Positions 4,888-36,642 of a stretch of 64,000 nucleotides of DNA are shown in pieces. The notes beneath the pieces were generated by a model, which worked only from the letters and a program-made list of their open reading frames with translations, had not been told where the DNA came from and did not search any database. The translations under genes were made by a program, and so were the position numbers. Each line of letters begins with the position of its first letter. Within the stretch, counting starts at the first letter, position 1. Source of the DNA: a virus (Duplodnaviria > Caudoviricetes); the IMG/VR virus record IMGVR_UViG_3300038393_001822, positions 6,291 through 70,290 of that record; one strand, written 5' to 3'.

Positions 4888-4942
4888 ATCATCTTAAAAA
4901 ATGATTTACAATAAAATATGAATTTCAAGGAGGGAAAATAAA

Positions 4943-5332
4943 ATGGAAAGTGAAGTCTTGTTAGATCCAATTAAAGAAATTTCCTATATATTAGAATCAA
5001 ATGGTTATGGTAAAAACCTAAGAGTAGGACACATTACATATGATAACAAAATAAACAAAGATTATCAGTATCAGATAATTAGAGAGTCTACTCATGACGG
5101 AACAGCAGTATTTACACAGGGGTTAATTTTTAAAGCTTTATCTAATTTAATTAATAAACAGAGTTATTATAAAGGGAATATAAGCGAGGATCAATTATCT
5201 AAAGTAAAAGATGTAAATTATATGATCGGTGATATTAAATTAGAAACTGAATATGGTGTTAAAGCTGAATTTGGGGCAGCTATTAGGCAAGTAGTTTCAA
5301 TTCCTGTAAAAGTTGAATATGAATTTAAATAA
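4943..5332 (+). CDS. hypothetical protein
   Basis: ORF track; RBS aggaggg; stop codon lies in a 16-bp junction palindrome. Confidence 0.7.
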   Translation: MESEVLLDPIKEISYILESNGYGKNLRVGHITYDNKINKDYQYQIIRESTHDGTAVFTQGLIFKALSNLINKQSYYKGNISEDQLSKVKDVNYMIGDIKLETEYGVKAEFGAAIRQVVSIPVKVEYEFK

Positions 5333-5365
5333 AATTACCATTTCAATATAACAGGAGGCTATAAG

Positions 5366-5566
5366 ATGTCAAAAGATCTATTACCGCATGAAAAGTTATT
5401 AGAGGCAGAAGCCTATATTAAAAGGCAACAAGAAACAATTGAACGTTATGAAGATGCATTAACTAAAATAGCTACAAGAAAAATGAGTATGTATATAGAT
5501 AAAGATCATATGCTTAGGAATTTTATTTACTTAGCTGATAATGCTTTAAATGGAGAAGAAGGTTAA
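5366..5566 (+). CDS. hypothetical coiled-coil protein
   Basis: ORF track; RBS aggagg. Confidence 0.65.
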   Translation: MSKDLLPHEKLLEAEAYIKRQQETIERYEDALTKIATRKMSMYIDKDHMLRNFIYLADNALNGEEG

Positions 5567-5918
5567 AAGCCCAAATAAAACTCTTATTTTAAATACTTAA
5601 TTTTCAAATATCCTCTTGTAAATGTAAATAATTTAATGTAAAATAAGATTATCAAATACATTAACTCTTTTGGAGGTATTTAAAATGGAAGAATTAAAAA
5701 AATTCAAAGTACTTTATGGTGATTACAGAGATCCTAGCGAGTTTTATTGTGAAGCTAAAAATGCAGAACAGGCCAAGACATTATTCAGAAGGAAATATGG
5801 TTATAATTATATTAAAATTCAAAGGGTTATAGAAATCAATGAATAAAAATTATTTACAATAACCAGTCAGAAAAAACTGGCTGGTTTATTTTTTAATAAA
5901 ATTAATTTAACAAGGAAG

Positions 5919-6395
5919 GTGATTACTATTAACGTTTTATCTTTATTTGATGGTAAATATAAAGTTACTGAGGATGGTAAAATATTGTCCACAGTAGGTA
6001 ATGAAAAAGAATTAAAAGGTAAAGTAACAAAAGAAGGATACAGAATGGTAGTTTTTAATGTTGATAAAAAGAAGATTTATAAAAATGTACATAGATTAGT
6101 CGCTGAAGCTTTTATACCTAATTCATTAAATTTACCAGAGGTTAATCATATTGATGGAAATAAATTGAATAACCATGTTGATAATTTAGAATGGGTAACG
6201 AGTAAAGAAAATCAGATACACGCAAGAGATGTGTTAGGTGCTAATTGCAAAATTAATATGGAAACTGCTAATAAAATAAGGGAATTGTATTCTACAGGTG
6301 ATTATTCACATAGGGAATTAGCAAAAATGTTTAACATTGGTAAAACGCAAATAGGTTCTATAGTTAATAATAAGAGGTGGATAAACAATGATTAA
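5919..6395 (+). CDS. HNH homing endonuclease with MTase-derived N-terminal leader
   Basis: VHRLVAEAF...VNHIDGNKLNNHVDNLEWVT HNH motif; C-terminal HTH; starts MITINVLSLFDG. Confidence 0.85.
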   Translation: MITINVLSLFDGKYKVTEDGKILSTVGNEKELKGKVTKEGYRMVVFNVDKKKIYKNVHRLVAEAFIPNSLNLPEVNHIDGNKLNNHVDNLEWVTSKENQIHARDVLGANCKINMETANKIRELYSTGDYSHRELAKMFNIGKTQIGSIVNNKRWINND

Positions 6396-7446
6396 TGGGA
6401 TGAATGTGTTAAGTTTATTCGATGGAATGTCGTGCGGCAGAATAGCATTGGAAAAAGTAGGAATTAAAGTGGATAAGTATTTTGCTAGTGAAATTAAACC
6501 ACACGGAATTAAAGTTACACAAGAAAACTATCCTAATACAATTCAAATTGGAGATGTAACTAAAGTAAGTTACGAAAATGGAATTCTTCACACTGAAAAT
6601 GGTGATTTTAAAGTGGGAGAAATTGATTTATTAATCGGAGGTTCACCATGCCAGAACTTTTCAATAGCATGTATTACAGAAAAAAGGAAAGGTCTGGAAG
6701 GAGAAAAATCAGCGCTATTCTATGAATATCTAAGATTACTAAAAGAAGTGAATCCAAGATATTTTCTACTTGAAAATGTAGGTAGTATGAAAAAGGACGA
6801 TCAACAAAAAATTAGTGAATACTTGGGATATAAACCTAATAATATCAATAGTAAGTTTTTTACTGCTCAATTAAGAAATCGTCTTTATTGGACTAATTTT
6901 GAAGTTTTACATGATTATCATGATAAAGGCATTAAACTCAATGATATATTAACTGAAGGTTGGTCAGACAGAGAAAAATCGAGATGTTTGTTGGAAGGTG
7001 ACAGTAGGCCTAATACAACACCAGTTAAAATGTTTCATAGATATTATTCTAGTGGTTTTACAACTTTAATATTTAAATCACAAGAACATTACATATCTTG
7101 TAAAAATCATTATGATACATATTTCAAAGGGTTATCTGCCAAGGAAATAGATGAAAAATTAAATGATGATATTGATTTAAGTATTTACGATGGAACTAGA
7201 TATTTAAACCAAGTAGAATTGGAGAGACTTCAATCTGTTCCGGCAGGATATACAAAATCAGTTGATAGAAACGAAGCTGCTAGTCTTTTAGGTGACGGAT
7301 GGACGGTAGAAGTAATCGCACATATCTTTAAAGGTTTGAAGGATAAAGTTAATACAATCGTATTTGATATTATAAATGATTACTTGAATCAAGAAGAACA
7401 AGAAAATACATATACTAATATAAATGATTTACATAAACACGCTTAA
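6388..7446 (+). CDS. DNA (cytosine-5) methyltransferase
   Basis: Motifs VLSLFDG (I), GGSPCQ (IV), LENV (VI), QLRNRLYW (VIII), ELERLQ, LGDGW (X). Confidence 0.9.
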   Translation: MINGMNVLSLFDGMSCGRIALEKVGIKVDKYFASEIKPHGIKVTQENYPNTIQIGDVTKVSYENGILHTENGDFKVGEIDLLIGGSPCQNFSIACITEKRKGLEGEKSALFYEYLRLLKEVNPRYFLLENVGSMKKDDQQKISEYLGYKPNNINSKFFTAQLRNRLYWTNFEVLHDYHDKGIKLNDILTEGWSDREKSRCLLEGDSRPNTTPVKMFHRYYSSGFTTLIFKSQEHYISCKNHYDTYFKGLSAKEIDEKLNDDIDLSIYDGTRYLNQVELERLQSVPAGYTKSVDRNEAASLLGDGWTVEVIAHIFKGLKDKVNTIVFDIINDYLNQEEQENTYTNINDLHKHA

Positions 7447-7497
7447 TAATTATTTTGTACCTTATGAAAGATTAGAAAAAGTATATTAACAAGGAAG

Positions 7498-8364: not shown

Positions 8365-8472
8365 TTATATAAATACATACCATAACATACATATAGAAAT
8401 AAAATAAAAGTATCGTTTTAATTAAATTATTCCTTTACAAATACAATTAATTTAATATATAATTTAAATAAG

Positions 8473-9215: not shown

Positions 9216-9488
9216 ATGAGAGAGATAGAAAGAATTGAGCGTGTTTTAGATTTAATTAAACGAATATGGATTAAACAACCTGACTCCAGATTTATGCAGA
9301 TGATGAGTAATTTGTCTTGGAATTATAGTGCTGCAAATAATGATGCCTATAAAGAGTATTCATACAGTAAATGGGAGACTCCAAAAGGAATTATATTTAA
9401 TAAAGATGTTGTAAATGTAGATTGTTTTCATCTTGAGGACGATAAACTTGAGATATTTTTGCAGGATTATTTAGAAAAATTACAATGA
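9216..9488 (+). CDS. hypothetical phage protein
   Basis: MREIERIERVLDLIKRIW...PDSRFMQ family pattern; stop lies in a junction palindrome. Confidence 0.65.
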   Translation: MREIERIERVLDLIKRIWIKQPDSRFMQMMSNLSWNYSAANNDAYKEYSYSKWETPKGIIFNKDVVNVDCFHLEDDKLEIFLQDYLEKLQ

Positions 9489-9516
9489 AATCCACATTTC
9501 AAAAGGAGATAATAAT

Positions 9517-9889
9517 ATGAGAGAAATTAAATTTCGTTTTTACCAAAAAAACTCATAAACAAATGTGCAATTGGGATTATGTGAAAGGTTATAAAGTATC
9601 AGCATTAGAAGATAATCAAGATTGTGATTCATATAGTCCTTGGATGCAATATACCGGAATTAAAGACAGAAACGGAAAAGAAATTTATGAAGGTGATATT
9701 GTTAAAGTTTCTGAAGAGTATGGAGGTCATGCTTATTCTCCACTTGTTGTCGATTTTAAGGATAGTTGTTTTGTTCTTAGACGTATAAATTATATGTCTG
9801 ATTATAATCCAATGTTTAAATATGATTTTACCAAAGTATATGAAATAATTGGTAACATTTATGAGAATCCAGAATTATTAAGCGAATGA
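9517..9889 (+). pseudogene. YopX-family gene with a +1 frameshift in an A7 run
   Basis: MREIKFRFYQK at 9517 (RBS aaggag) is out of frame with MQYTGIKDRNGKEIYEGDIV...EIIGNIYENPELL; one fewer A at 9545-9551 fuses them. Confidence 0.75.
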
Positions 9890-9915
9890 AATACAGATTT
9901 CAAGGAGTGAAAAAT

Positions 9916-10077: not shown

Positions 10078-10105
10078 TAAAAACACTGTTTTAAGAGGTG
10101 AAAAT

Positions 10106-10363: not shown

Positions 10364-10399
10364 TAAAAAGCAAATTTTATATAAAAAAGGAGAGGAAAT

Positions 10400-11116: not shown

Positions 11117-11187
11117 ATAAGTTAATAAAAGAAAGCTTTTAATGAATTATTGAAGTTAAATAGCGTAACAAGAAAGGGAGAGATATT

Positions 11188-11514
11188 ATGCAAAAGTTTG
11201 AATTTATGGTTAATCATAAAGGTGAAATAAGCGATGGATACCATACATTTAATGAATTGTATCATCATCGAATGATTCTGTTTTCCGTAATTTGCAATCA
11301 AAATAAAGAAAAGGCTTGGAAAGCTAAAGCGCACGCCGATGGGACAATGTACGATGAATATTTCATTGTCGGTATTACAACTGATGAAGGTGATTACACA
11401 TACCATTACCATATTGATAATTGGCATTACTTCAAGGTGAAAGAGCTTGAATTTGCACCCGAATGGGATGGACATAAACCTGAAGATATAACACGATTAT
11501 TATCTTTGCTATAA
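11188..11514 (+). CDS. WDGH-motif phage protein (paralog of 36128-36454)
   Basis: DGYHTFNELYHHR...YTYHY...WDGH. Confidence 0.75.
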   Translation: MQKFEFMVNHKGEISDGYHTFNELYHHRMILFSVICNQNKEKAWKAKAHADGTMYDEYFIVGITTDEGDYTYHYHIDNWHYFKVKELEFAPEWDGHKPEDITRLLSLL

Positions 11515-12017: not shown

Positions 12018-12053
12018 ATAAAAAAAATAATGGGAAAATTTTAAAACTTTTTC

Positions 12054-12201: not shown

Positions 12202-12429
12202 TTGATTGGAAGTGAAAAAATGGAATTTGTCATACAGTTATTAAAAGAAAAAAAGAAAGAAATTCAAAAGGAATATGAGTTAGAAACAGATTTTATAAAA
12301 ATTCATGCATGTAAACTAATGACAGAACAAATTGATAAAGCTGTTAAAACATTAGAATATGAGTATTACTGGAAACATTTAAGTGAAAAGCAAATTGATG
12401 AAGTAATGGGAATTAGAAAAATACGATGA
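12202..12429 (+). CDS. hypothetical protein
   Basis: ORF track; stop lies in a junction palindrome. Confidence 0.6.
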   Translation: MIGSEKMEFVIQLLKEKKKEIQKEYELETDFIKIHACKLMTEQIDKAVKTLEYEYYWKHLSEKQIDEVMGIRKIR

Positions 12430-12647
12430 AAATCTACTTTTAATTTATAGGAGGCGTAGTGGGATGAATTCTTTAGTTAAAAAAGGAATAAATGAATTTG
12501 AAAAAATGTATCCATTTATCAAATTGACAGAATCAGATAAATCTATATTAGCACTTGCTTATACATTAGGTTATGCGAATTCTAAAATTGATACGTATTC
12601 TAAAGTAAAATCTAAATAAAATATCCATTTCAAGGGAGATGATCTAA

Positions 12648-13508: not shown

Positions 13509-14385
13509 ATGGATGAAAAAATGAAAGTTTATAACGAAATGAGTAAAAAGAAATTTGAATTAGATGATAAATTAAATGAGTTAGAAGCTGCTAAAGATAA
13601 CTATAGAGAATCACTTGTTAATGAAACTATTAATGACATTTTGAACGTGTTAAAAGAGGATGGGAAGTTGACTGAAAGAGATTTAAAATTGTTCTTAGGC
13701 AATTTAGCATTAGACGTAAAACACATTTATTCAAGGTAAAATAATCATTTTAATTTTAAAAAGGAGTGTTAGTATGATTTTATTTTTATTAAAACGTGAT
13801 CACCATGAAGGTCAAACAATTTATGGAGTTTTTGAAACTGAAGAGTTGGCACTAAAACAAATACCAAAACATAAAGAAACTTTACCTAATGTTCCAATTA
13901 TTGATTATAAAATTGTAGGGTTAACTCTTAATGATTTAACTGAAATCGAAGCATATGACGAATAAAAGCAATCTTTTAAGGGAGGTTAGTATTATGAAAA
14001 CAGCAATATTTAAAGAATCGGGTACATTAAGTTGCAGAGGGGAAGTTGCTTCAAGTTATGCCGCAGGAGATGAAGTGACCATTATGGAAGAATTTAACGA
14101 AGATATTTATCAAGTAATGATCATGAAAGGTAATTCAAGAGGAACTATTGCATATATCAATAAAGATATGTTGGAACTAAAATAAAAGGATTATTTCAAA
14201 TGGAAAATGAAAAACGAGAATTTTGTGCATATTGTAATAAATGGTTTCAAATTAAAGAAATGATCGAATTACATGAAAAAGGAAAAACAACAATATTGTA
14301 TTATTGTACGGCCTGCTATCCAGAGGTTAAAGCAAACATAAATGGCTTACCTTGGAAAGATGATTTTACTTTTTATAGAAAATAA
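13509..14385 (+). other. four small hypothetical CDS (13509-13739, 13774-13965, about 13993-14185, 14200-14385)
   Basis: ORF track; first three end with TAA inside a 16-bp junction palindrome. Confidence 0.65.
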
Positions 14386-14729: not shown

Positions 14730-15401
14730 ATGGAAATTTTAGCAAAAAGATTAAAGTGGTTAAGAGAAAAACAACGTTATTCGCAAAAAGAAATTGCTTC
14801 TGAAGTAGGAATGACTCCTAGTGGATATCAGAAAATTGAATATGGAGACAGAGATCCGAAGCTAGATGTTTTAGTAAGAATATGCAATATTTTTAAAGTA
14901 AGTTCAGATTTTTTACTTGGAATTAATGATATAGTGGGAAACTTAGAGGAATTAAGTAATAAAATCCTTATATTACAAAACAGAAAAAAAGAATATAGTA
15001 GGCATTTAGAAATAATAAACCATAGTTTATATGAAATTGAAAATAAAAAAGGGATACCAAGAGACTACGGAGAAATAGAATTAAAAAACAGAGAATTAAT
15101 GTTACAACAATCAAAAGCAAGTGTGGAAAAAGACTTATATGAAACACAAGAAAAATTTAGAGAAGTTACGTATGATTATATTAAAGAAATTTTAGATATA
15201 CCCAGTACAATTCCCCATAAGAACTCTATTATTAAATTATTGCAACCATTTTCTATTGAAATACAGCCTAACCTTTTTGATGAATTTGCTTTAGCTTTTT
15301 TCTGTAATGAGGGATTTATTGAAAATTTTGGTGTGTATGAAACAGAAGAGGATGCTAGGGAAGCAAGAAAAGAAATGTTAATTATGTTTAACGGTAAATA
15401 A
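14730..15401 (+). CDS. XRE-family HTH regulator with coiled-coil C-terminus
   Basis: RLKWLREKQRYSQKEIASEVGMTPSGYQKIEYGDRDP. Confidence 0.85.
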   Translation: MEILAKRLKWLREKQRYSQKEIASEVGMTPSGYQKIEYGDRDPKLDVLVRICNIFKVSSDFLLGINDIVGNLEELSNKILILQNRKKEYSRHLEIINHSLYEIENKKGIPRDYGEIELKNRELMLQQSKASVEKDLYETQEKFREVTYDYIKEILDIPSTIPHKNSIIKLLQPFSIEIQPNLFDEFALAFFCNEGFIENFGVYETEEDAREARKEMLIMFNGK

Positions 15402-15785
15402 AACAATGGTTTTAAAAGGGAATCATATTTCGGTTCCCTAATACATAAATATAAATAAGTTAATAAGGGAGATATTAATAATGAACATTAAAGATAATAT
15501 GCTCGTAATTAAAGGGTGTATTCCATATGATTCTAAAAAGGAAAAACTAGCGGCATGGAGACAGTTAAAACAAGAATTTGGTGATTCAGTGAGAATTATA
15601 TTTAGAGAAGGATTTATATCTTATTCATGTACAGTAGATCGAAGTTTATATATGTAAAATACATAATTGAAAAAATTATTTAAAAATTTTAAATATAAAT
15701 ATACAAATAGTACTTGTCAAAGAGTACAAATTGTAGTAATATTTAGGTATAGAAACACGATACTACTGAAAAGGGTGGATGCAGA

Positions 15786-17416: not shown

Positions 17417-17445
17417 AAAGGCAGAATAAAATCTGCCTTTTATTT
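17417..17445 (+). terminator. terminator after the aimX-like gene
   Basis: aaaggcaga-ataaaa-tctgccttt then AT/T-rich run. Confidence 0.75.
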
Positions 17446-18110: not shown

Positions 18111-18162
18111 TTATGACGCATTACGAAACAAATTATGTCATAAAAGCTGAGTTTTAAAGGAG

Positions 18163-18462
18163 TTGAAAACAATGAAAAAGTTTTTAATTATACCTATATT
18201 AATATTTTCATTGACCGCTTGCTCGGAACAACCTGAAAAGTTTATTGGTAGTGTCCAAGATGCAAAAGTTATAAATAAGGATGTTAAAGATTATGCCCGT
18301 GCTGCAACTGATTATTACATAACAGTTCAAAAAGGGGATACTAAAGCAACATTTGAAATATCTGAAGAAATGTTCAAAACAGTGAATGAAGGAACTGTAA
18401 TTTCAGGTGAATATAACAAGGATTATGAATTGAAAAATATAACTTTAGATGGCTTAAAATGA
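18163..18462 (+). CDS. lipoprotein
   Basis: Lipobox LTAC after a signal peptide. Confidence 0.75.
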   Translation: MKTMKKFLIIPILIFSLTACSEQPEKFIGSVQDAKVINKDVKDYARAATDYYITVQKGDTKATFEISEEMFKTVNEGTVISGEYNKDYELKNITLDGLK

Positions 18463-18472
18463 TTCTTTTATT

Positions 18473-19143
18473 ATGGAGGTAAAATTAATGAAAATTATTG
18501 TAAGTGGAAAAGATATTTTTGAATTTCATTTAGATACACATTTATTTAATAAAGTTATCCTTAGTGCAAAGAGTTTTGAAGAAGCTAAAAAGAAATACCT
18601 GCAATGTATTGAAGATAGTATTGACCGAGAATTACAAAATATGATCATTGAATTTAATAAAAAGTATTATACCAATCTAGGGAAAGAAGATATCTAATAT
18701 AATGAACATTTTATTAGGGAGGGAGTAATATGGATAAACGAGAAATATATTTTACATATGCTAAATTACCGAGAGAAGATGGGACTTTCTCTGATTATTT
18801 TACTTACTACATGGAACATCCACAAAAAAATACTAATATATTAATAAGAACATGTAAAGAATTTAGCGAATACGTCCATTTTTGCATGGAAATTTGCGTA
18901 TTTTATAAATCTCAAAAGAAAAATACGTATAGGCAAATTGTTCCAGAAGATGATGAATTAGATTACAGTGATTATGAAATTAACTTCATTTGGGATGATA
19001 TGAAAATATATAAAGATACAGATTTATCTACGATTGATTATCCAAATATTAAAGGATTAATCAAAATGCATTCACTTAATGAAGGATACAGAGGGATTTT
19101 AAAGAGATTGTTAAGAGGAGAAACGTTTTTAGATATTAAATAA
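18473..19143 (+). other. two hypothetical CDS (18473-18697, 18730-19143)
   Basis: ORF track; bounded by junction palindromes. Confidence 0.6.
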
Positions 19144-19167
19144 AAGGACAATTTTAAATACAAATAA

Positions 19168-20008: not shown

Positions 20009-20400
20009 GGACTTAATCACTCCGTTAACTAAGATGTATATTTAGTTTTTACAATATTTAATAATACATACAAATGAAACATAAGTTTTAACAGTCCTGT
20101 TGATGGGCTGTTTTTATTTTGTCTAAAATATTCAGAGAACAATCCAATTTTTACTTTACAAATTCTTGGAATGATGTTAAACTTTCCTTAAAGATAAATA
20201 TACAAATAAATACGTTTAAATATAATAATATGTGGTATAATATAAAGGAGATGAGAATAAAATGTTAAATGACCTGCTAGGATTCTTTAAGCGAAACTCA
20301 AAGAAAATGAGCGATTTTGAAAAGAAAAAGATGTTGAGTGAAATTAAACAAATAAAAATAATATTGGAAAAGGATCTAAAATTGAGAGGAGTGATTTAGG

Positions 20401-22945: not shown

Positions 22946-23938
22946 TTGATAATGAGTAAATTATATAATGGTGAAATTAAAGAGCGATTTCTTTCTAATT
23001 ATGACAATGAACAAACTCAGGCAACAATTCGAAATGTATTTGCTAAAACGGAACTGGTGGAAAGTGTATTAGAAAAAGATTTATATGAAATGAATTTAAC
23101 TGAATTAGGTAAATGTATAGAAAATACAAATCCTTATAATAAAAATGTTGCAAAATCAACTGGTAGATTTATTAGTCAGTATCTAACATTTTGTACGGAA
23201 AATGGGTACAGAAATAGCAATATTAATCCACTTAAAGGTGTAGATGATGAATTTTATGATAAGTATGTAGATAAGAGCAAGAAAATACACTTTAGTTTTA
23301 ATGAATTCTTAGAGTTATTAGAAGACCCAATTTTACACAATGCACAGGACAAAAGTTTTTTATTTCTCATATTTGAGGGACTTCTCGGTGAACAGTTTAG
23401 TGAATTAAGGGAACTTAAAGTATCAGATATAGATTTTGAAAATAAAACTGTTTATATTAAAGAACGTGGACAAAAGGTTGAAATTAGTGATGAATGTATT
23501 AAGTATTTAGAGAAAACAATTAACGAAAAGACATATTATAATTACAATCCAAAAACAAAAGATTTCAATGAACGAGAATTGTTACAATCGGTATATGTAT
23601 TTAAAACAACAAAAAGCCCACGAGCAACTGAAGGTCAAATGGTAGGTATGTCAATGTTATATACACGTATACATGCGTTAAAAGAGATATTAGATCTTGA
23701 ATACTTTACACCTAACGCCATTAAGCAATCAGGTATGATTAAAATGGCAGTTGATATTTTTAAAGAAGAAGGGGTTTTAGGGTATGATCAGCTTGCTAAA
23801 ATAGGGGAAAAATACAATTTCTCTAAGCTGGATAATAATGGTTATTCATACTACAACACATATTTAATGAAAGAATTCATAAACGAAGAAAATATTAAAG
23901 AACTTTACGGAATCGATGTAGTAATACAAAAGAGGTAA
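22946..23938 (+). CDS. MrpR/YopR-like master repressor (inactive tyrosine-recombinase fold)
   Basis: Integrase-like LIFEGLLGEQFSELRELK lacking the catalytic R; PNAIKQSG replaces HxxR; synteny. Confidence 0.75.
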   Translation: MIMSKLYNGEIKERFLSNYDNEQTQATIRNVFAKTELVESVLEKDLYEMNLTELGKCIENTNPYNKNVAKSTGRFISQYLTFCTENGYRNSNINPLKGVDDEFYDKYVDKSKKIHFSFNEFLELLEDPILHNAQDKSFLFLIFEGLLGEQFSELRELKVSDIDFENKTVYIKERGQKVEISDECIKYLEKTINEKTYYNYNPKTKDFNERELLQSVYVFKTTKSPRATEGQMVGMSMLYTRIHALKEILDLEYFTPNAIKQSGMIKMAVDIFKEEGVLGYDQLAKIGEKYNFSKLDNNGYSYYNTYLMKEFINEENIKELYGIDVVIQKR

Positions 23939-27003: not shown

Positions 27004-27534
27004 ATGTACATAAGAAAGAAATTATGTCGTAAGGAAGGTGTAAAAATGGAGTGGTATGAAAAGTTAATTCAGAACTTAGAGAAAGAAAATCAACGCTTAT
27101 TAGATAGGCTTGAAAGACGATACGAAGAGATTATGAATCTTGAAAAAGAACTAGGTAAATCAAAAATGGAAGTCATTAAATTGAACGCAAAAGTGAACTC
27201 ATTAGAAAAACAATGATACGTATTTCGAGTCAAAATATACATTAAAAAGTTTATTTTAAATGGAGGAGATATAATGAAAAAAGTTAAATTGAATATTCAG
27301 GAAACATTAAAATTCCAAAGAGAAATGGTTATCGAAATCCCTGATGATATGAATGAGGATAAACTAAATAGATTTCTCGATAAAGCCCAAATGAAAGCAC
27401 AAGCTGCAATTGACATTAGTTTTATCCTCGAAGATTTTAGTGATGAAATAAATGTCATTGAACTACCGGATGAAAGTTGCGATAGTCCTTGGGATACAGA
27501 AATAGAAATTGATGATTTTGATTACCTTGATTAA
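27004..27534 (+). other. two hypothetical CDS (27004-27216, 27274-27534)
   Basis: ORF track; RBSs present. Confidence 0.6.
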
Positions 27535-27593
27535 ATTTTAATAAAACATCGATTTGATTAGAAAATAAATTAATAAAAGGAGCTTGAAAACGA

Positions 27594-28199: not shown

Positions 28200-28247
28200 A
28201 ATAAAATTATATTTTCATTATATTAAATAAAAAGGAGTAGAAATAGA

Positions 28248-28725
28248 ATGAATACTGAAGAATTTGAATTAAAAATTAAACCATTAATTGATGTAATTGA
28301 AGTTTTGTGTAGAGAGAATGGGATTGATTTTTTAGCAGAGTTTAAGATTAATAAGTCTGGTGAAATATATATGGCTAAAACTGACGATATGATTATGGAT
28401 GGAGCGACTATTTTAAGTCAATATCAAAGATGGCAGTTAAGTAAATAATTTAAAATGTGAGTTTTAAGGGGGATGAAAAATAATGACAAATGGACAATGG
28501 TTAATAAAACAAATCATTGAAAAGAAAAAATTAATTCAAGTAGTGGAACAGGAAATTGAAGAATTTGAAAGTGATTTAAGTGGAATGGAAATCGATTATC
28601 ATGGTATGTATGCGGTAATCGAAGGAGTAGACATTGATGGTGAAGTAATTTTATATGTAGAAGAAGATGATGGTAATTCTTATAATCTAATGTTAAGTAT
28701 ATATGAATTATTGGAATTAATTTAA
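28248..28725 (+). other. two hypothetical CDS (28248-28448, 28483-28725)
   Basis: ORF track; separated by junction palindromes. Confidence 0.6.
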
Positions 28726-28753
28726 AACGTGAATTTTAAAAGGTGGTGATAAA

Positions 28754-29380
28754 TTGGATAAAAAAGTTTGTAAGGATTGTTTAGAAATATTTCCATTAAA
28801 CAATGAGTATTTCTACAAAAATAAATCAAGTTCAGATGGATTTAACCCTTATTGTAAAGAATGCACTAAAAAGAGATCAAGAAAATGGGCTGTAAATAAT
28901 CAGCAACAAAAGAAAGAGAGTCAAGCAGAGTGGTATCAAGATAATAGAATGAGGTTATTAGATAAGCAAAAAACTCTTGATACTAAAAATAAAGATGTTA
29001 AGAAAACCTATTTATCAAATTGGCAAAAAGAAAATAAAGATAGAGTAAGAGAATATCAAATTGAAAGAAACATACATAAGACACATAATATATCTGATGA
29101 AGAATTAAATGAATTATATGAATATGCAAATGATTCATGTATGTATTGTGGTTTAACTGAGCAAGAGTCATTAGAATTGTATAATCAAAGATTACATAAA
29201 GATCACGCTTATAACAATGGTTCAGACAGAATTGATAATTGTGTATTGGCTTGTAAAAGCTGTAATGGTAGTAAACGAACCAAAGATTGGGATGAATGGT
29301 ACATCCAAGACAACCCTAAGTATACATATGATAGATATTTAAAAATAGAAGAATGGTTAAATAAGTTTATAACTAATTAA
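28754..29380 (+). CDS. HNH endonuclease with N-terminal Zn-finger
   Basis: CKDC...CKEC; CMYCG...DHAY...NCVLACKSCNGSK. Confidence 0.85.
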   Translation: MDKKVCKDCLEIFPLNNEYFYKNKSSSDGFNPYCKECTKKRSRKWAVNNQQQKKESQAEWYQDNRMRLLDKQKTLDTKNKDVKKTYLSNWQKENKDRVREYQIERNIHKTHNISDEELNELYEYANDSCMYCGLTEQESLELYNQRLHKDHAYNNGSDRIDNCVLACKSCNGSKRTKDWDEWYIQDNPKYTYDRYLKIEEWLNKFITN

Positions 29381-29394
29381 AATTCCGAATTTAA

Positions 29395-32192
29395 TTGAAA
29401 AGGAGTGGTTATGTGCTAGGTAAAAAAGTTGAAATAATTGATGAGACAAATTTTTATTGGGGAATGATAGGCAAAATTATACAGGTAGAACCTAAAGCTG
29501 TATTAGTAGAAATACGTTTTACCCTCAATATTACACAAAATGTATGGTTTTTTACTGAGCAAGTTGAAATTATTGACAAATAAAAGTCAGGTTTTATTAT
29601 AAAAGGGGATGAATTAAGTGGATAAATTATATGGTATAAAAGAAAAATATATGTCTTGGGAATATGATTTCAATTTAACTAAAGAAGATATTGATTGGCT
29701 TATTGAAACCGTTAAACAGCAACAAGAAGAATTAAATCAATTAAGTGATTTATATGATAAAGTTTTAAATCATCGTGAGAAATTAATCAATGAAAATTTT
29801 AAATTGCTTCAAGACAGAAATATGTGGATTGAAGGATCTTCGCAGCAAAGTAAACAAATTAGGGAGTTAGAAAGTGAAATTGTTGCTCTAAAAAATGCAA
29901 ATAATTCAATATGAAAGAGTTATTTTATTGGGGGAACGAGGTGAAAGTAAATGATAAGTAAGTTTCCAGTTCAAGGAAAATTAGATGAGTACAAAGTATC
30001 CGTCAATCAAAAATATGTGTGTTTAGGTATGTATTCATGGGAAGTAGTAATTTATAAGTACAATCCTAATAAGATATTTTTCAAACATAAAAAATTATAT
30101 ACATACAATTCAGGATGGAATCATTATAAAGATTGGATAGGAAAATACGTTGAGTTAGCAAAAGAAGTAGTTAAAGAATATGAGGATGAAATAATTCAAG
30201 AACGAAATGATGAAATAAATCATCAAAAAGGATTAAAACAATTTGCAGCTTGGGATGGAAAATTAAAAAAATAATGCTTAGAGGTGAGAATGGTCATGAT
30301 AGAAAAACTAGAAGATATAATTTTTACAGATCAATATGGAAATATTTTAGGTCGTAGACCAAATAATGAAGATATTATAAGAAAAGTAAATGAAATAATT
30401 GAATACATAAACAAGGAAAGTAAATAAAAGATAGTTTTTATAAGGAGTGAAATGATGAAAATTTTAGGTAAGAAAACGGTTATTGAATATGTCTACGATA
30501 GTAAAGAAGAAGCCATTCTGCATGAAGAAATTATGAAAAAAGATGGATGGCAATGTGAAGTAGTTGGTCATTTTATGATTCCTAACTTTAAAAGCTACTC
30601 TAAAAGACATAAAGAAGGAGCATTTCTTTAATTTTAGTCATTAGAATGTTGTTTTTGAGGGAGGTGAAGAAATGTTCTTAAAACATTTTCAATACAAATA
30701 TAGCATGTATGATTATGAAGTTTACTCAATATTTGATTATTTTTATGATGAAGTTTTTAGTATACAAATCTATCATGATGGAAGACATAGCATATTGATA
30801 AATAAAAGATCATTAACGAATGAAGAATTGAATGAATTAAAACTAATTAAAACAAAAGTAAAATACATTTAAAATGTTGTTTTTAATGGAGGTGAATAAA
30901 TGAATAATAAAAAATCTGCTCTTGAGATTAGCAATGAGATAGGATTTTCATTTTCTAAATCATCTATAGAAAATTATATTAAGTATTTAGAAATGGAAAA
31001 TAAATTACTTAAACAAGGAATCCAAAAATTTATTGATAAAAATTTTACAGGTGGAAGTAAATCTGATCGTGAAGATTATGCTCAGATGGTTAGCTGCAAG
31101 GATATTTATGATTTAAGGGAATTAATTAAATGAAATCTTACTTTTATTAAGGGGAAATAATAATGAATAATATCAAAGTAGAAGTTGAAGGTTTAAAAGT
31201 AAAAATTAAACAGTACCCAAGAGAAATAGACTTGAAGTTTTCTACGCAATTTGAATTAGATGTATTCTTATTGCAACTTGTATTTGCAGAATTAGAAGTA
31301 ATTGAATAAAAATACTTTTATGAGGTGACGATATGCCAGATAAAGATAGTTGGTGGAAGGGCGAAGAAGAACCTGCCGATAAAGATTCATGGTGGCGAGA
31401 TAGATAAAAATACTTTTTTATTAAGGAGATTAAGATAATGAAAAAACTAATTGAAAAATTAATCGCACAATTTGAGGATGAAATTGCAGAAATTGAAGAA
31501 GTATATGGATCTGAATGGGAAGATTTTAATCCTATGGATGCAAGTGGTGGAAACTTTGATGATGCATATAATTTAGGCTATGAACATGGTCAAGTTTATG
31601 GTAGATACGAATTGCTAAAAGAATTGTTAAAAGACTGTAATTAATAAAAAATCTATTTTATTAAATAAAAATTAGGAGGAATTATAAATGGATTTAAGAG
31701 GGTACAGATACGAAGGTCATAGAGTTGATTTTAAATATACACCTACTGTTAAAGCTACAGAATTTAAAGAAAAAGTGTTTAGTATTTTAAAGTTGATTTA
31801 CGACAATGAACTATGTGGCATAAAATTTGAACACTATGGAACAAAGGTTGAAGTGTCATTTGATGGTAAATCATTCACAATAGACAGTGTAAAATCTATT
31901 AGATTTTTATAAGTAGATAAAAATTCTCTTTTATTAAGGAAGTGATGTTATGAAAGGTATTTTGAAAAATAGATTTGACTTGTTAGAACTCGATTGGGAT
32001 GAAGTAGAAGATGGTAAAATACAAAATATTGACAAAGATGATGTATTTACTTTTGAATTTAATGAGGAAGTAGAAATTTTAAAAGTAATCAAAGACAAGT
32101 CATATATTGATGGAAAAGCCTATGTAATTCTAAACAGAAACAACGACAGCATGACGGTATCTTCTATTTTAGTTGAATTAATTAATGAATAA
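29395..32192 (+). other. array of small hypothetical CDS (including 29395-29583, 29618-29914, 29951-30274, 30672-30872, 30900-31133, 31438-31644, 31688-31912, 31950-32192 and several under 60 aa)
   Basis: ORF track and hand translation; nearly every junction has the 16-bp palindrome. Confidence 0.7.
31333..31407 (+). CDS. 24-aa minigene with a duplicated DKDSWW motif
   Basis: MPDKDSWWKGEEEPADKDSWWRDR; RBS gaggtg; stop lies in a junction palindrome. Confidence 0.6.
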   Translation: MPDKDSWWKGEEEPADKDSWWRDR

Positions 32193-32225
32193 AATTTGAG
32201 TTTTATTATGTTTTAGGAGGTAAAA

Positions 32226-33011
32226 ATGAGTAAAGAAATATTAGGAAGCTTAGAGATTAATAGAATTTATCAAATGAGTTGTATCGAGGGGATGAAATTA
32301 ATACCTGGTAGGTCAATTTCATTAATAGCAACTGACCCTCCATATGGGAAAGATTATAAGTCAAATTGGAGCAATACTTTTGAAAAGATTGATAATGACA
32401 ATAACTTAAATTGGCTTGAAAATTTATTTTTAGAATTAAACAGAATAACTAAAAACGATTCACATTTATATTGTTTTTCAAGTGCTGAATATTTAGGTGA
32501 ATTTATATTAGAGATTAAAAAATATTGGAAAATAAAAAATATAATTACAATACCGAGAACTATGAAAGGAGGAATAGGTGATTTAAAATCTTCTTTTTCG
32601 CCACAAAATGAATATGCTATTTTTGCTACAAAGGGAAGTAGACCTTTTGAAGAAACGCAAATTTTAAAACCAAGTGAAGTATATATGAAAGATAAACGTA
32701 AAAAACCTAAAGAGTGGTTATATAGACTTCCTGATTATTGGGATTGGTTAAAAGTAAGTGAACACAATTTAAAAAGAAAACACCCAACCCAAAAAACTGT
32801 AGATGTAATGGAAACAATGATTCAACTTTCGTCTAAGGAAGATGAATTAGTAATAGATCCGTTTATGGGAAGTGGTACTACTGCTGTTGCATGTTTAAAA
32901 AATAATAGGAAATTCATTGGTTTTGAAACAGAATCGAAATACATAGAGGTTGCAAATAAACGAATTGAAAGTACCTATAACGAATTAGATGATAAAAAAT
33001 TATTGGATTAA
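32226..33011 (+). CDS. DNA N6-adenine/N4-cytosine methyltransferase (beta class)
   Basis: TDPPY, HPTQK, DPFMGSGTT. Confidence 0.9.
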   Translation: MSKEILGSLEINRIYQMSCIEGMKLIPGRSISLIATDPPYGKDYKSNWSNTFEKIDNDNNLNWLENLFLELNRITKNDSHLYCFSSAEYLGEFILEIKKYWKIKNIITIPRTMKGGIGDLKSSFSPQNEYAIFATKGSRPFEETQILKPSEVYMKDKRKKPKEWLYRLPDYWDWLKVSEHNLKRKHPTQKTVDVMETMIQLSSKEDELVIDPFMGSGTTAVACLKNNRKFIGFETESKYIEVANKRIESTYNELDDKKLLD

Positions 33012-33025
33012 TAAGTGAATAAAAT

Positions 33026-33289
33026 TTGAATTTTGCCTTTGAACGAAAAGGCGAAGGAGTGAAACAAATGTATTGTACGGTTAAAGAAGGCGATTTAATA
33101 GAGTTTGGATATACAAACTGGAAAGGTGTAATGGGTGTAAGAAAGGCTATTGTCAAAGAGTTTTTCTTTGGCAAGACTGAATTTCACACTGATTATCAAA
33201 TGATGATAAGAGCCTTTGATTTGGATAAATTAGCCGAAAGAACGTTTGCGGTTAAAGATATGAAAGAGGTTGAAGTGATAAAAATTTAA
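33026..33289 (+). CDS. stand-alone WYL-like domain protein (likely start 33068)
   Basis: FGYTNWKG..R..FG.TEFH..Q..RAFDLDK..RTFAVKDM. Confidence 0.55.
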   Translation: MNFAFERKGEGVKQMYCTVKEGDLIEFGYTNWKGVMGVRKAIVKEFFFGKTEFHTDYQMMIRAFDLDKLAERTFAVKDMKEVEVIKI

Positions 33290-33543
33290 TTCATAGTACG
33301 AACAAATTAATCAAAATAAAACTTTCGTTTTAATTGAAATTAAGTAAATAAGGAGGTTTGATCATGAATTCAAATACTGCACTGGTTCTAATAAACTTAG
33401 GTGTTTTAGCCTTGACAGGAATAGTGTTTTTCCTTACTCATAGTTGGTGGTCTTTGATTATATTAATATTCATGTTTAAGACAGAAACACATAGCAATTA
33501 AAATTCTCATTTTAATAGATAAATAATTAGAAAGGGTGTTCAA

Positions 33544-34842
33544 ATGAGTTATGAAATGATGATAGAGTACGATAAAATTGCAACCGTACATTATGAGGAA
33601 AAGAAACGTTATGATAAATTGAAAGACAAAGAGACTTCTAAATATCATAAGCAACAATTTGAAAAATATGATGTTATGTCTTTTGATGAAATGGGAGATT
33701 TGAATGTTTCAGATTTATATATGGATCAAGTTTCGAAACAGCAAACAAGAGCATTACGTGTAGTAAGATATTCTCACTATAGAAACTGGCACAACTCAAC
33801 ATTAACCGAAAAAGAACGTTGGGGAATAGAATTAGTTAAAGAAGCACTAAAACGGTCTAAAAATCCAGTTGTAAGCTGCTCGTTTGGTATTGATTCAATT
33901 GTTACATTATACATAACTAGGAAAGCGTTAGCTGAATTAGGTCGTGATCCAAGTGAGATTCAAGTTATTTGGAATGATACATTGAATGAGTTTCCTGAAG
34001 TAAGGATATACGCTAATCAATTACGTAAAGATTGGAACTTAAACTTAATCATTAGTAAACCAAAAATTCCACTAAAGAAAGTAATTGAAAAGCATGGAGG
34101 TGTAGATTCATCCTATTTCTTTACTCGTAAAGGAGACAGAAGAAATGGTCAACCCTTATCTGAGAAATGTTGTGGCACATTAAAACACGAACCAATGAAA
34201 CGCTCAATTAAAGAAAATAATTGGGATTTAGTAATAAATGGACTAAGGGCAGATGAATCAACACAACGATTAAGAGCTGGGCTTCGAGATGGAGAATATT
34301 TTTACTCCTCTACAGAGTGGAAAGCATTTACTTGTAGACCGATAATGTGGATGAAAGAAGAAGATATTTGGGATTATGTAAAACAAGAAAATATACCTTA
34401 TAATGAATTATACGATAAAAATACCATAATGAAATATCCTGAAAATAATCAGGAAATAATACATAATAATAAAAGTGAATTAATTGAATATGAAGTTAAT
34501 GTAGATTCATTACAAAAGGAACAGTTACTTAATGTGTCTCGTAAACAATCAATCTTACTAAAAAAGTTAGGATATGACATATTCACACCACGTACAGGTT
34601 GTATGCAATGTCCAATACCAGTAAAATTTGGATATATGCAATGGATGAGATTAAATCATCCTAAGATTTTCAATAGTATGATACACAGTTTAGGGTATGG
34701 TAAAGCACTCATTACAATGATTCCTAAAGATGTAAAAGAAGAAATTGAATTTGTAATGGGAATTGATCTAACAGAAGAGAATGCACATGAATTTATGAAG
34801 GATATTTTACAAGCTAAACCTTGTGTATTTGATAAGTTTTAA
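33544..34842 (+). CDS. PAPS-reductase/DndC-like PP-loop protein
   Basis: SCSFGIDS, DTLNEFPE, CCGTLKHEP, GLRADES, RTGCMQCP. Confidence 0.85.
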   Translation: MSYEMMIEYDKIATVHYEEKKRYDKLKDKETSKYHKQQFEKYDVMSFDEMGDLNVSDLYMDQVSKQQTRALRVVRYSHYRNWHNSTLTEKERWGIELVKEALKRSKNPVVSCSFGIDSIVTLYITRKALAELGRDPSEIQVIWNDTLNEFPEVRIYANQLRKDWNLNLIISKPKIPLKKVIEKHGGVDSSYFFTRKGDRRNGQPLSEKCCGTLKHEPMKRSIKENNWDLVINGLRADESTQRLRAGLRDGEYFYSSTEWKAFTCRPIMWMKEEDIWDYVKQENIPYNELYDKNTIMKYPENNQEIIHNNKSELIEYEVNVDSLQKEQLLNVSRKQSILLKKLGYDIFTPRTGCMQCPIPVKFGYMQWMRLNHPKIFNSMIHSLGYGKALITMIPKDVKEEIEFVMGIDLTEENAHEFMKDILQAKPCVFDKF

Positions 34843-34871
34843 AATAAATTATATTAATAATACATAATTTG

Positions 34872-34919
34872 TATCTATATGTAGTATAAGGTTAGTACTG
34901 AACATACTACATATAGATA
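34872..34919. repeat. 16-bp perfect inverted repeat with 16-nt spacer
   Basis: tatctatatgtagtat / atactacatatagata. Confidence 0.8.
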
Positions 34920-34959
34920 TATTATCCAATAAAAGAAATATTTTAATAGGAGGTGACAT

Positions 34960-36093
34960 ATGTACATAAAAGAAAATGCTGCAACTACATATAACCTAGA
35001 ATTAAATGAAGATGAATACAAATTGTTAAGTAAAGTATTTGGTAAATTGATCTTTAATCCGGCTGGTGTGAGTAATGCTTTTAGATTTGAAAATGAGGAA
35101 ATTCAGGTTGTGAAAAATATTAGTGGTCAGTTGTACGTGTATAATAGGCAAAATTCGGTTTATTAAAACGGAGATTTTAAATTAATTATTGACAGTTAAA
35201 TATAAATATATTAATATTAAATATGAAAGGAGGTGATTCCCCTGCAACAACAAAACAAGAAAAGTCGGTTCAGAAAATGGGTCTGGAGAGTAATAATGAT
35301 AATTCTGATCTTACTAATGTTGCTGCAATTACACCATTATGATTTAGCATTACAAGAGTTAGCAAAACTGAACATTGAACAAAATGATACGATACATAAT
35401 ATGCAAAAAGAATTACATAATATTGAGTTACGGGATTTACAAATTAAATCAGATGTTAGTGATTTAAAACTTAAAATTAACGGACAGTTTCAAGATATAC
35501 ATAATGAAAAAATGCCTTCACCAGATCTACATAAGAAACATGATGTACATATAACGACTTTTAGTCCAACAAGTATTATCACAACTACAACAGTTACAGT
35601 ATTAACACTTTTGAGGGGAATAAGTAGTTTAATACCTGCGTTTAATTAAAGGAGGTAGTTTAATTGGATTATAGAGAGCAAGTTTTAGAGACTTACTTAA
35701 ATTCGTTGACTGCAATGGGAGCATCAGAGAAAATCATACGTGCAGCTTTGATGGCATTCGATACCGGCTTTTCTTGTGGAATATTGAATGGTCAAGATGG
35801 AGAAACACAAATGGCAATGATTGATGCTTTATCATATCAAAAACAAATACATTAATAGATTAGGAGGGAAGTAAATGAACTTTACAGAGATCACTAAAAA
35901 GATGAATGAAATGTTTACAAAGACAGGTAAAGTACCAGTTAAAGTAAAAGTTAATTCTTACTGGTACGAAAAACAATTACAAGGAAATTTCGTTTTACAT
36001 AATCCGAATGAAAATTTAATTGAAAAATTAACAGGATTACCAACAAGTATTGATAACAATGTAGATACATTCGAATTTGTTTATGAATCTTAG
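34960..36093 (+). other. four hypothetical CDS (34960-35166, 35233-35649 TM/coiled-coil, 35664-35855, 35875-36093)
   Basis: ORF track; RBSs present. Confidence 0.6.
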
Positions 36094-36127
36094 AAGTTAA
36101 AAGGCGAACTAAAAAGGAGAGGTTAAA

Positions 36128-36454
36128 ATGCCTAAATTTGAATTTGATGTTGAAAGAATAGGTTTAATTAATGATGGTTCACATACGTTTGATGAGTTGT
36201 ATTACCATCGAATGATGTTATTTTCGATTATCTGCAATCAAAATAAGGATAGAGCTTGGAAATCTTGGAAACACGATGATAATACAATGTTTGATGACTA
36301 TTTCATTGTGGGGATTGAGACACCAGAAGGTAATTATACCTATCATTATCACAAAGATTATTGGGATTTGTTCAAGGTTAAGGAATTTGCTTTTTCTCCA
36401 CCTTATGACGGACACAAACCAGAAGATATTACACGTTTACTAAGTTTGCTTTAA
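36128..36454 (+). CDS. WDGH-family protein (paralog of 11188-11514)
   Basis: DGSHTFDELYYHR...YDGHKPEDITRLLSLL. Confidence 0.75.
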   Translation: MPKFEFDVERIGLINDGSHTFDELYYHRMMLFSIICNQNKDRAWKSWKHDDNTMFDDYFIVGIETPEGNYTYHYHKDYWDLFKVKEFAFSPPYDGHKPEDITRLLSLL

Positions 36455-36486
36455 GACACAATACGAAACAAATAGCGTCTTAACTA

Positions 36487-36560
36487 AAAAAGTTTGTGAA
36501 AATATATAGCTTAGAAACAATGTTATATCAAGGTTTATTTTAAAAATTCACAAACTTTTT
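36487..36560. repeat. long hairpin element with 14-bp terminal inverted repeat (copy 1)
   Basis: aaaaagtttgtgaa / ttcacaaacttttt; second copy at 56446-56517. Confidence 0.8.
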
Positions 36561-36642
36561 CACATTAAAATGTACCTTTTATTTACAACTTAGAATATCC
36601 TCTATGATAAAAATATATTAATAAATAAGGAGAGGATTAATT

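Follow-up and report, generated by a model that had tools for sequence, protein, structure and literature searches.

The window analysed here, 64,000 nucleotides of DNA (positions 6,291 to 70,290 of the IMG/VR record IMGVR_UViG_3300038393_001822, a 70-kb viral contig found in metagenomes of soil and rhizosphere), comprises the early/accessory arm of an SPbeta-like prophage together with its replication module. Its gene junctions carry dozens of copies of a short palindrome, T(A/G)AAA-N6-TTT(T/C)A, which is a real, strongly non-random and family-wide phage trait. The six central bases, referred to below as the centre or address, differ from site to site. Related phages were found to keep the same centres in the same order around genes that have been replaced. 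The explanation modestly favoured here, from sequence comparison, is that the sites are core sites of the tyrosine-recombinase type, in which the 6-bp overlap would act as an address for the swapping of genes between phages.

The motif is present in 46 exact copies in the window, against 5.04 ± 2.42 copies (maximum 12) in dinucleotide shuffles. An earlier note on this DNA had listed 40 exact copies and estimated that only a handful would occur by chance; all 40 are present, six more were found (at 1878, 17427, 20075, 32417, 33499 and 61925), and the estimate is borne out by the shuffles. The near-variants named there are real copies with one or two arm mismatches (4451, 18698, 27542, 29378, 30642 and 33020). 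At three of these, 18698, 27542 and 29378, the centre is common to the syntenic site of a relative. The spacing is strict, as the same note had described. When spacings of 0-20 were scanned, N6 gave the 46 copies and any other spacing 1-9, and no spacing peak was seen for the same arms in inverted or direct arrangements. TAAAA-N6 also ranked first in an unbiased scan of all 5-mer palindromes, with 32 copies vs 1.4 at other spacings. The six central bases vary, with near-zero information, and no centre is duplicated among the 46 exact sites. The bases flanking the arms outward are A or T only, W (A or T) is favoured at the next outward position, and the centres of the half-sites lie 11 bp apart. 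Inverted arms around an overlap of 6-8 bp form the core-site layout of tyrosine recombinases, which is seen here as a 5-6-5 palindrome at N6 only.

The evidence for addresses comes from relatives of the prophage. REL1 is a Logan contig (L004 and L042) whose YopP and MrpR proteins are 68% and 53% identical to those of the window. With one arm mismatch allowed, REL1 and the window have 12 centres in common and all 12 are collinear, the longest collinear chain in 5000 shuffles being 8. Restricted to exact sites, six centres are common and six of six collinear, where the null mean is 0.54 common centres. Around five REL1 sites, each 60-nt flank matches at 17-27 of 60 positions, a random level for this composition, and the 16-mer itself is identical at 14-16 of its 16 positions. 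The open reading frames (ORFs) of REL1 17.0-21.7 kb gave no blastp match to those of window 27.2-35.2 kb at E < 0.001; the few REL1 matches up to E 0.01 all lie outside window 27.2-35.2 kb. The lengths of the slots between sites also differ between the two phages.

Further relatives repeat the pattern. L162, a prophage within a 1-Mb scaffold, has six common centres in the same order (CGTGAA, TTCCGA, TCTTAC, TTCTCA, GAAATA and CGGAGA), with no homologous ORFs between the common addresses. L163 has three, again in order (TTCCGA, TTCTCA and GAAATA). At address TTCCGA, an island of 15 nt is all that is common to five phages. Between two other phages, Goe11 and SPbeta, 11 of the 16 Goe11 centres were found in SPbeta, in order.

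These data bear on a second explanation, in which the palindrome is the binding site of a dimeric phage protein (a stoperator-like silencer or a YopQ/ParB-like factor) acting in expression or genome architecture, and exchange is a by-product. Because the 16 identical bases are the sole homology left between diverged arrays, homologous or microhomology recombination, of the general or the phage-encoded kind, would resolve there. This account is regarded as unlikely. Fixed half-sites with centres 11 bp apart and no covariation are what a bound dimer would leave; however, a site defined by its arms gives no reason for free centres to be identical position by position amid randomised flanks, and sixteen bases are very short for homology-driven exchange.

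Breakpoints between relatives were also found at sites. The contigs L033 and L037 are near-identical metagenome contigs from the same soil campaign as the window. L033 and the window are 100% identical over 5.6 kb that start at 18454, the base preceding site 18455; in the 1.8 kb left of 18454, L033 is unrelated. Another contig, L034, has its left end at 18452, and the 18455 junction is where a Logan contig terminates. Metagenome scans with either flank of this junction gave no match, the source samples apparently lying outside the scanned collection. An exact 16-mer scan of viral contigs with its address, TGATTC, returned more than 117 mostly chance matches and no relative of the window. L037 matches the window rightwards from the degenerate site 29378 and is unrelated leftwards.

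The slot 33499-34930 holds a 1.3-kb PAPS-reductase gene in the window and an ORF of 56 amino acids (aa) in L163. The gene before 33499 is homologous in L163 (69% aa), as is the gene after 34930 (44% aa). Similarity to L163 ends at the 33499/34930 site edges, the left flank of 33499 being homologous. The right arm of 33499 differs in this comparison (TTTTA vs TTTCA), on the non-homologous side. In SPbeta vs Goe11, an unrelated 2.2-kb gene stands in place of yoqD between GATGCA and GTAAAA. Logan gene tables, for which the tables alone were used, list different genes after junctions 9887 and 33020 in other samples. Soil and rhizosphere sequencing runs contain 62-86% of the stretch 27.0-36.9 kb. 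Every mappable exchanged junction has the same centre in both partners, which speaks against the tolerance of spacer heterology, of the Tn916 kind, suggested in the earlier note.

Two pairs of direct repeats share a centre within the window. Copies of TGTTGT at 30642/30870 flank a one-gene insert (30672-30872), and copies of ATACTT at 31307/31405 flank a mini-cassette of ~98 nt; one copy in each pair is degenerate. About 0.15 such pairs would be expected by chance, on a rough estimate. Same-centre direct repeats around small inserts resemble products of integration, a further point that a protein-binding site alone does not account for.

The PAPS-reductase-like gene and two single-gene cassettes that adjoin palindromic sites, the latter identified from Pfam matches and the gene tables of identical metagenome contigs, are:

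10400-11116, Apyc1-like gene (anti-Pycsar)
27594-28199, Gad2-like gene (anti-Gabija)
33544..34842, + strand, PAPS-reductase-like gene of 432 aa, a cassette between addresses TTCTCA and GAAATA

The individual sites, with the ribosome-binding site abbreviated to RBS, are:

579..594, site, centre CACTGT; intergenic, no RBS after; membership uncertain
1878..1893, site TGAAA-GAAGAA-TTTCA, of uncertain membership
4451..4466, degenerate site, right arm ATTTA, centre TCATTC; RBS after
4912..4927, site, centre TATGAA; RBS 1 nt downstream
5330..5345, site, centre TTACCA; a stop codon forms the left arm
5576..5591, site, centre CTCTTA; precedes a promoter-like stretch
8405..8420, site, centre GTATCG; precedes a promoter-like box
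9486..9501, site TGAAA-TCCACA-TTTCA; a stop codon forms the left arm
9887..9902, site TGAAA-TACAGA-TTTCA; a stop codon forms the left arm
10078..10093, site, centre ACACTG
10364..10379, site, centre AGCAAA; directly 5' of the Apyc1-like gene
11126..11141, site, centre GAAAGC
12427..12442, site, centre ATCTAC; a stop codon forms the left arm
12617..12632, site, centre TATCCA; a stop codon forms the left arm
13737..13752, site, centre TAATCA; a stop codon forms the left arm
13963..13978, site, centre GCAATC; a stop codon forms the left arm
14183..14198, site, centre GGATTA; a stop codon forms the left arm
15399..15414, site, centre CAATGG; a stop codon forms the left arm
17427..17442, pattern match in the loop of a terminator-like hairpin (GGCAGA/TCTGCC); probably coincidental
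18141..18156, site, centre GCTGAG
18455..18470, site, centre TGATTC; breakpoint vs L033
18698..18713, degenerate site, left arm TATAA, centre TGAACA, common with REL1 position 5835
19141..19156, site, centre GGACAA, kept in relative L007; similarity of relatives L006 and L007 begins at its right edge
20075..20090, site TGAAA-CATAAG-TTTTA; kept in L006, L007 and L033; L006 similarity begins 1 nt before
27243..27258, site, centre AGTTTA; syntenic REL1 site (17866) AGTTTC, 5/6 match
27542..27557, degenerate site, right arm TTTGA, centre CATCGA, common with REL1 position 18073
28202..28217, site, centre TTATAT, common with REL1 position 18471
28451..28466, site, centre TGTGAG
28723..28738, site, centre CGTGAA, common to REL1 and L162, with unrelated flanks
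29378..29393, degenerate site, right arm ATTTA, centre TTCCGA, common to REL1, L162, L163 and L037
29581..29596, site, centre GTCAGG
29912..29927, site, centre GAGTTA, common with REL1 position 19546
30425..30440, site, centre GATAGT, common with REL1; flanks unrelated
30642..30657, degenerate copy, arms TAGAA/TTTTG, centre TGTTGT; direct repeat with 30870
30870..30885, site, centre TGTTGT, common with REL1
31131..31146, site, centre TCTTAC, common to REL1 and L162
31307..31322, degenerate copy, right arm TTATG, centre ATACTT; direct repeat with 31405
31405..31420, site, centre ATACTT
31645..31660, site, centre AATCTA, common with REL1
31918..31933, site, centre ATTCTC
32190..32205, site, centre TTTGAG; a stop codon forms the left arm
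32417..32432, pattern match within the ORF of the N6/N4 methyltransferase (32226-33011); probably not functional
33020..33035, degenerate site, right arm TTTTG, centre TTTGAA; 3' of the methyltransferase gene
33317..33332, site, centre CTTTCG
33499..33514, site, centre TTCTCA, common to L162 and L163; left border of the PAPS-reductase cassette
34930..34945, site, centre GAAATA, common to REL1, L162 and L163; right border of the PAPS-reductase cassette
35164..35179, site, centre CGGAGA, common to REL1 and L162; last of the array, then a promoter-like stretch
36566..36581, site, centre TGTACC; within a ~95-nt repeat
48336..48351, site, centre GAACTC; first junction past the replication block
56523..56538, site, centre TTGTAG; within the second copy of the ~95-nt repeat
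60018..60033, site, centre TCTATA, of uncertain role; 3' of the serine recombinase gene
61903..61940, two pattern matches of uncertain role (61903 and 61925), close to the presumed end of the prophage

The accessory arms (4.9-20 kb and 27-35 kb) bear a site at about 40% of their gene junctions, and in the stretch 28.4-35.2 kb an exact or degenerate copy stands at 19 of 20. In 19 of the 46 copies an ORF of at least 40 aa has the left arm as its stop codon, and an ORF stop lies within -25 to +12 nt of 30. An RBS and start codon follow within 60 nt in 35 copies, mostly after 1-10 nt. Only copy 32417 lies deep inside a long ORF. The replication block (36566-48336) has no copies between its bounding sites, and the array sites keep a single transcription direction throughout. 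Stop codons in the left arm, a following RBS and an empty replication block had all been remarked on in the earlier note.

Such placement could point to a signal for expression only (processing, translational coupling or pausing), with breakpoints coinciding with sites since viable rearrangements end between genes. The stop codon in the left arm (19/46), the RBS and start codon after 35/46 and the shared direction of the array sites would suit this. Because ~40% of accessory-arm junctions bear a site, the two breakpoints at sites are not significant alone against an 'any junction' null. An expression signal is nevertheless improbable as the whole explanation. The hairpin formed by the arms is unstable (mean free energy +0.55 kcal/mol), G-U is not preferred over A-C and the stem is not extended. 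The ordered centres are kept despite unrelated flanks, and the similarity to L033 begins one base before the site rather than elsewhere in the gap. In SPbeta, the outer arms are dyad-symmetric on the DNA in either gene direction. For the protein-binding account, the restriction of the motif to the early/accessory arms, exactly between stop codon and RBS, is a point in its favour.

Outside the window, SPbeta carries 36 copies at N6 and 0-10 at other spacings. These likewise follow stop codons and precede RBSs, in both gene orientations. The flanks of the SPbeta sites are dyad-symmetric, with T-Y-T three bases outside each arm, which makes a 28-bp site with an 11-6-11 arrangement; this window has weak outer arms. 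Most of the loci retrieved via YopP homologues (34-80% identity) are enriched in the motif, the exceptions being L015 and the very distant L019 and L020. In the YopP-bearing loci without the motif (L014, L015, L019 and L020), no alternative palindrome stood out in a palindrome scan, so that no co-variation between arms and recombinase emerged. No description of the palindrome was found in the SPbeta literature searched. In the whole genome of Sporosarcina globispora, 37 of 99 copies fall in an SPbeta-like prophage of ~133 kb, where they are 25-fold denser, and this count rules out a host-wide feature.

Other known elements were considered and rejected. A hairpin of RNA or single-stranded DNA was excluded, as Watson-Crick pairing outside the arms is at expectation and there is no covariation. 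Positions 2 and 15 vary independently, with G-U no commoner than A-C, and the spacer is without self-complementarity. The phage RNA polymerase YonO initiates at a single site upstream of yonK (PMC5467207). Because YonO starts at one site, it is not the reader of ~40 palindromes, and the palindrome was rejected as a YonO promoter.

SPBRE, the operator of the SPbeta repressor MrpR (YopR), is a 15-bp motif with ~10 copies in promoters (PMC10516654). Its core, AATATGTATA, was found in 9/10 SPbeta MrpR target regions, the regions being taken from the same source. Like the palindrome, SPBRE recurs between genes in this phage family, and the protein that binds it has a tyrosine-recombinase fold. The two are distinct: AATATGTATA is unrelated in sequence, number and placement to the palindrome, which lies between stop codon and RBS. 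Separately, a box, AATTAATTTGATAATAT, occurs in a promoter-like repeat (…TTGnnT…AATTAATTTGATAATAT) ahead of several operons, in at least five regions. It is a candidate operator of the MrpR-like repressor, and so a candidate SPBRE counterpart here. The AATTAATTTGATAATAT promoter-like repeats are:

~8425-8450
12050-12078
37467-37505
46934-46972
49652-49690
56175-56213

If the sites are recombination sites, the window encodes a possible enzyme for them. The relevant genes, all assigned with Pfam, are:

20401..21495, + strand, YopP-like tyrosine recombinase of 364 aa (PF00589 and PF02899)
21584..22939, + strand, YopQ-like DndB/ParB-like protein in the YopP operon, which may be an accessory DNA-binding factor
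22946..23938, + strand, MrpR/YopR-like repressor with tyrosine-recombinase fold
58276..59889, + strand, SprA-like large serine recombinase, the presumed integrase

The enzyme of the sites is tentatively taken to be the orphan, catalytically intact YopP-like recombinase (20401-21495). Across 28 homologues, R188, K214, H272, H298 and Y307 are invariant and R275 is nearly so. Over the catalytic motifs, a profile of YopP homologues can be aligned to XerA, XerD and XerH (E 6e-9 to 8e-8). The same profile matches IntI4 over the C-terminal 75 residues only (E 5e-6), which is weaker than the Xer matches. The YopP-like recombinase is considered an orphan because the serine recombinase at 58276-59889 would serve integration. 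It has been reported that yopP is a core gene of SPbeta-like phages with no assigned function, and that in SPbeta it is expressed in lysogens with yopQ and mrpR as part of the lysogeny operon (PMC10516654; PMC8612738).

Four motif-rich phage genomes that were found by the motif alone each encode a tyrosine recombinase of 349-362 aa. Those of G007 and G004 are remotely similar to YopP, and those of G008 and G009 have no detectable similarity to it. The non-enriched phage genome examined has no tyrosine recombinase. G008 (the IMG/VR record behind L115; 150 kb with direct terminal repeats) has 20 copies of TAAAA-N6-TTTTA, with 1 in the control; it has no YopP-family protein and only a distant tyrosine recombinase of 350 aa. 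The pattern across motif-rich phages is compatible with a wider recombinase family, and equally with another reader of the sites.

In the proposed mechanism, two inverted binding arms (TAAAA/TTTTA), which extend weakly outward here and to 11 bp in SPbeta, would flank an asymmetric 6-bp overlap. Strand exchange by tyrosine recombinases requires identical overlaps, and every site would have an overlap of its own. Because overlaps must be identical, a site would recombine only with the site of the same address in a collinear phage or prophage. The exchange would be enzymatic and would take place within the 6-bp centre. A single crossover would swap everything on one side, so that arms are reassorted, and two crossovers would swap the gene or genes between two addresses; in neither case would the order be scrambled. 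The accessory arms would then be arrays of mostly one-gene cassettes, the Apyc1-like and Gad2-like genes included, exchanged within a pool of related phages. Same-centre repeats such as those at 30642/30870 would result from recombination with a circular product.

Several observations weigh against exchange by a recombinase at these sites, or against YopP as its agent. Centres are common only among fairly close relatives. Sharing is at chance level with L165/L166 (replication protein 78% identical) and with L021 (Neobacillus), and the two centres common to the window and SPbeta, where 0.7 are expected, are not significant. Sharing is limited in this way, and the two members of one syntenic pair are distinguished by a single base (AGTTTA in the window at 27243, AGTTTC in REL1 at 17866); the addresses therefore drift into 'dialects'. 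L015 encodes a YopP homologue (36% identical), yet there is no site in its 21 kb. The motif-rich complete phages G007, G008 and G009 have distant tyrosine recombinases only, none of the YopP family, and the presence of the motif in such phages would suit a site bound by some other protein. Only 5-6 bp per arm are conserved here, which is short for the arm of a tyrosine recombinase. The regular placement between stop codon and RBS may reflect a role in expression. The link between YopP and the sites amounts to guilt by association, and binding, cleavage or recombination by any protein is something that we infer.

The breakpoints are likewise mixed. The earlier note had asked whether those of relatives fall within the 6-nt spacer; those of L033 and of the PAPS-reductase cassette lie at the edges of sites. 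A short patch at and just right of the right arm of 29378 diverges between the window and L037, and this junction therefore does not represent a clean exchange within the centre. In SPbeta vs Goe11, a site is found within 10-20 nt of only ~6-8 of the ~34 homology ends; other recombination routes are therefore at least as active. The patch beside the centre at 29378, and the many SPbeta/Goe11 breakpoints that lie 9-20 nt off a site and not inside it, would be easier to accommodate if the palindrome were a protein-binding site.

The earlier note had also proposed an integron-like system. Integrons (IntI, attI and attC) consist of arrays of mostly one-gene promoterless cassettes with recombination sites between them and a tyrosine recombinase. 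A true system of this kind here, with mobile one-gene cassettes that carry their own site, are excised as circles and are reinserted anywhere in the array, is very improbable. One-gene units, the 19/20 occupied junctions at 28.4-35.2 kb, the two small inserts between repeats of one centre and an encoded tyrosine recombinase are shared with integrons. Unlike an integron site, a site here keeps its position and centre while both neighbours change, and so is not carried by a gene. There is no attI-like primary site next to 20401-21495 and no common promoter. The sites span 16-28 bp and are not folded elements like attC, which are 57-141 bp long. The centres of the 46 exact sites are unique, and intramolecular shuffling would be blocked because centres are unique within the genome. 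The YopP profile also fits Xer proteins better than IntI4. The sites are thus positional, with gene order preserved. Of the earlier proposal, tyrosine-type recombination sites are supported by the ordered centres, the replaced genes and the breakpoints at sites; the integron-like form was not upheld, nor was heterology tolerance. The other alternative of that note, a protein bound at each junction, may still be the molecular basis, but by itself it leaves the position-wise conservation of the centres unexplained.

Stoperators of cluster A mycobacteriophages are many copies of one asymmetric repressor site, oriented with transcription and found in short intergenic gaps. Their placement is similar, whereas the site here is symmetric and each centre is different and conserved by position. 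Heterospecific lox/FRT sites for recombinase-mediated cassette exchange have identical arms and differing spacers, and only like spacers recombine. As proposed here, two different sites bracket an exchangeable cassette, though the lox/FRT systems are engineered. We know of no natural equivalent with dozens of addresses. With somewhat less assurance than the reading of the sites themselves, the array may be a natural counterpart of such exchange, in which an XerH/XerS-like YopP would act on dozens of heterospecific sites that form a shared coordinate system.

The closest parallel at the level of the site is difH and difSL, the sites of the single-recombinase Xer systems XerH and XerS. These have arms …GAAAA | centre | TTTTC… and recombinases of 354-362 residues (PMC5357621). 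The inverted arms, the ~6-bp centre and the inner A-tracts are alike, as are the 11-6-11 site of SPbeta and a recombinase of ~355-365 residues. Here, in contrast, dozens of sites lie at phage gene junctions, each with its own centre, vs one per genome. There is no link here to chromosome dimer resolution or FtsK, and the system is known from sequence alone. The TAAAA/TTTTA arms do not appear to match those of B. subtilis dif.

Two further systems are comparable in part. The dif modules with pdif sites in Acinetobacter plasmids are reported to bracket adaptive genes and to occur in different replicons (PMC6449649). They are similar as multiple Xer-type sites in accessory regions that bracket adaptive genes. 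They differ in being plasmid-borne, with host XerC/XerD thought to be the users, and in that modules change context; the sites here are ordered coordinates, specific to phages, with a phage-encoded recombinase candidate. The promoter-early stem-loop (PeSL) of T4-type phages is described as preceding nearly every small non-essential gene of the hyperplastic regions (PMC2839356). Exchanges at PeSLs are said there to explain insertions, deletions and replacements between close relatives, and can yield small circles. PeSL is also a short repeated element ahead of small accessory genes, but it consists of a sigma-70 early promoter and a terminator hairpin, recombines through homology and has copies that are alike. 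The palindrome forms no stable hairpin and its centre is site-specific and conserved by position. As the RBS lies within 1-10 nt in most copies, there is no room for a promoter in the site.

The prophage contains other mobile or repeated elements. In relatives, a DUF4379/NUMOD homing-endonuclease-like gene (494-514 aa) lies between yopP and yopQ, and it is absent here (21495-21584). There is no palindrome at the yopP/yopQ junction, and the gene was therefore gained or lost by another route. Its locations are:

L004, 11192-12676, homing-endonuclease-like gene
L005, 1180-2724, homing-endonuclease-like gene
L007, 3490-5034, homing-endonuclease-like gene

An HNH-endonuclease gene (38% aa) is found at 28754-29380 in the window, downstream of yopPQR, and at 4426-5112 in REL1 (L004), upstream of yopP; judged by this similarity, it is a cassette that changed slot. 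Paralogous pairs with DNA identity of 68-77% lie at 24223-24996 / 37535-38329 and at 11188-11514 / 36128-36454, the latter pair encoding WDGH-domain proteins. Relative L007 has an inserted third copy of the former family. A repeat of ~95 nt, 77% identical, occupies 36489-36585 and 56446-56540, and both copies end in a palindromic site, with centres TGTACC vs TTGTAG.

The window has a G+C content of 28%, with nearly all genes up to 60 kb on the + strand, and DnaB-like helicase and ribonucleotide reductase genes were also identified (Pfam). The gene tables of identical metagenome contigs list three DNA methyltransferases. At 5919-8364, an HNH_3 gene and two C5 DNA methyltransferases stand in tandem, and an N6/N4 methyltransferase is encoded at 32226-33011. 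The same gene tables place one further gene:

15786-16925, AimR

Genes switch strand at ~60 kb, and G+C rises from 27-30% to 40% beyond 62 kb, followed by genes with GDSL-lipase and chitobiase domains. From this rise and these genes, the prophage therefore probably ends near 60-62 kb, and the prophage/host border probably lies just past the serine recombinase gene. Among GenBank phages there is no close relative at the DNA level, the sole match being the PAPS-reductase gene, and an MrpR-based scan of viral contigs found no relative of the window.

The joints of phage mosaics are usually ascribed to rare illegitimate or homologous recombination followed by selection. If addressed exchange is correct, these phages would have a built-in, sequence-addressed joint at nearly every boundary of an accessory gene. 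Co-infecting phages and resident prophages would be able to trade accessory and anti-defence genes one slot at a time, with genome order left intact. This would explain the fast turnover of anti-defence and accessory genes, with order kept, in large temperate phages of Bacillus-like hosts. For genome engineering, a natural set of dozens of mutually exclusive recombination sites, all used by a single small recombinase, would be of practical value as well. Addressed exchange would also provide a function for YopP, the product of a conserved gene of the model phage SPbeta that has had none.

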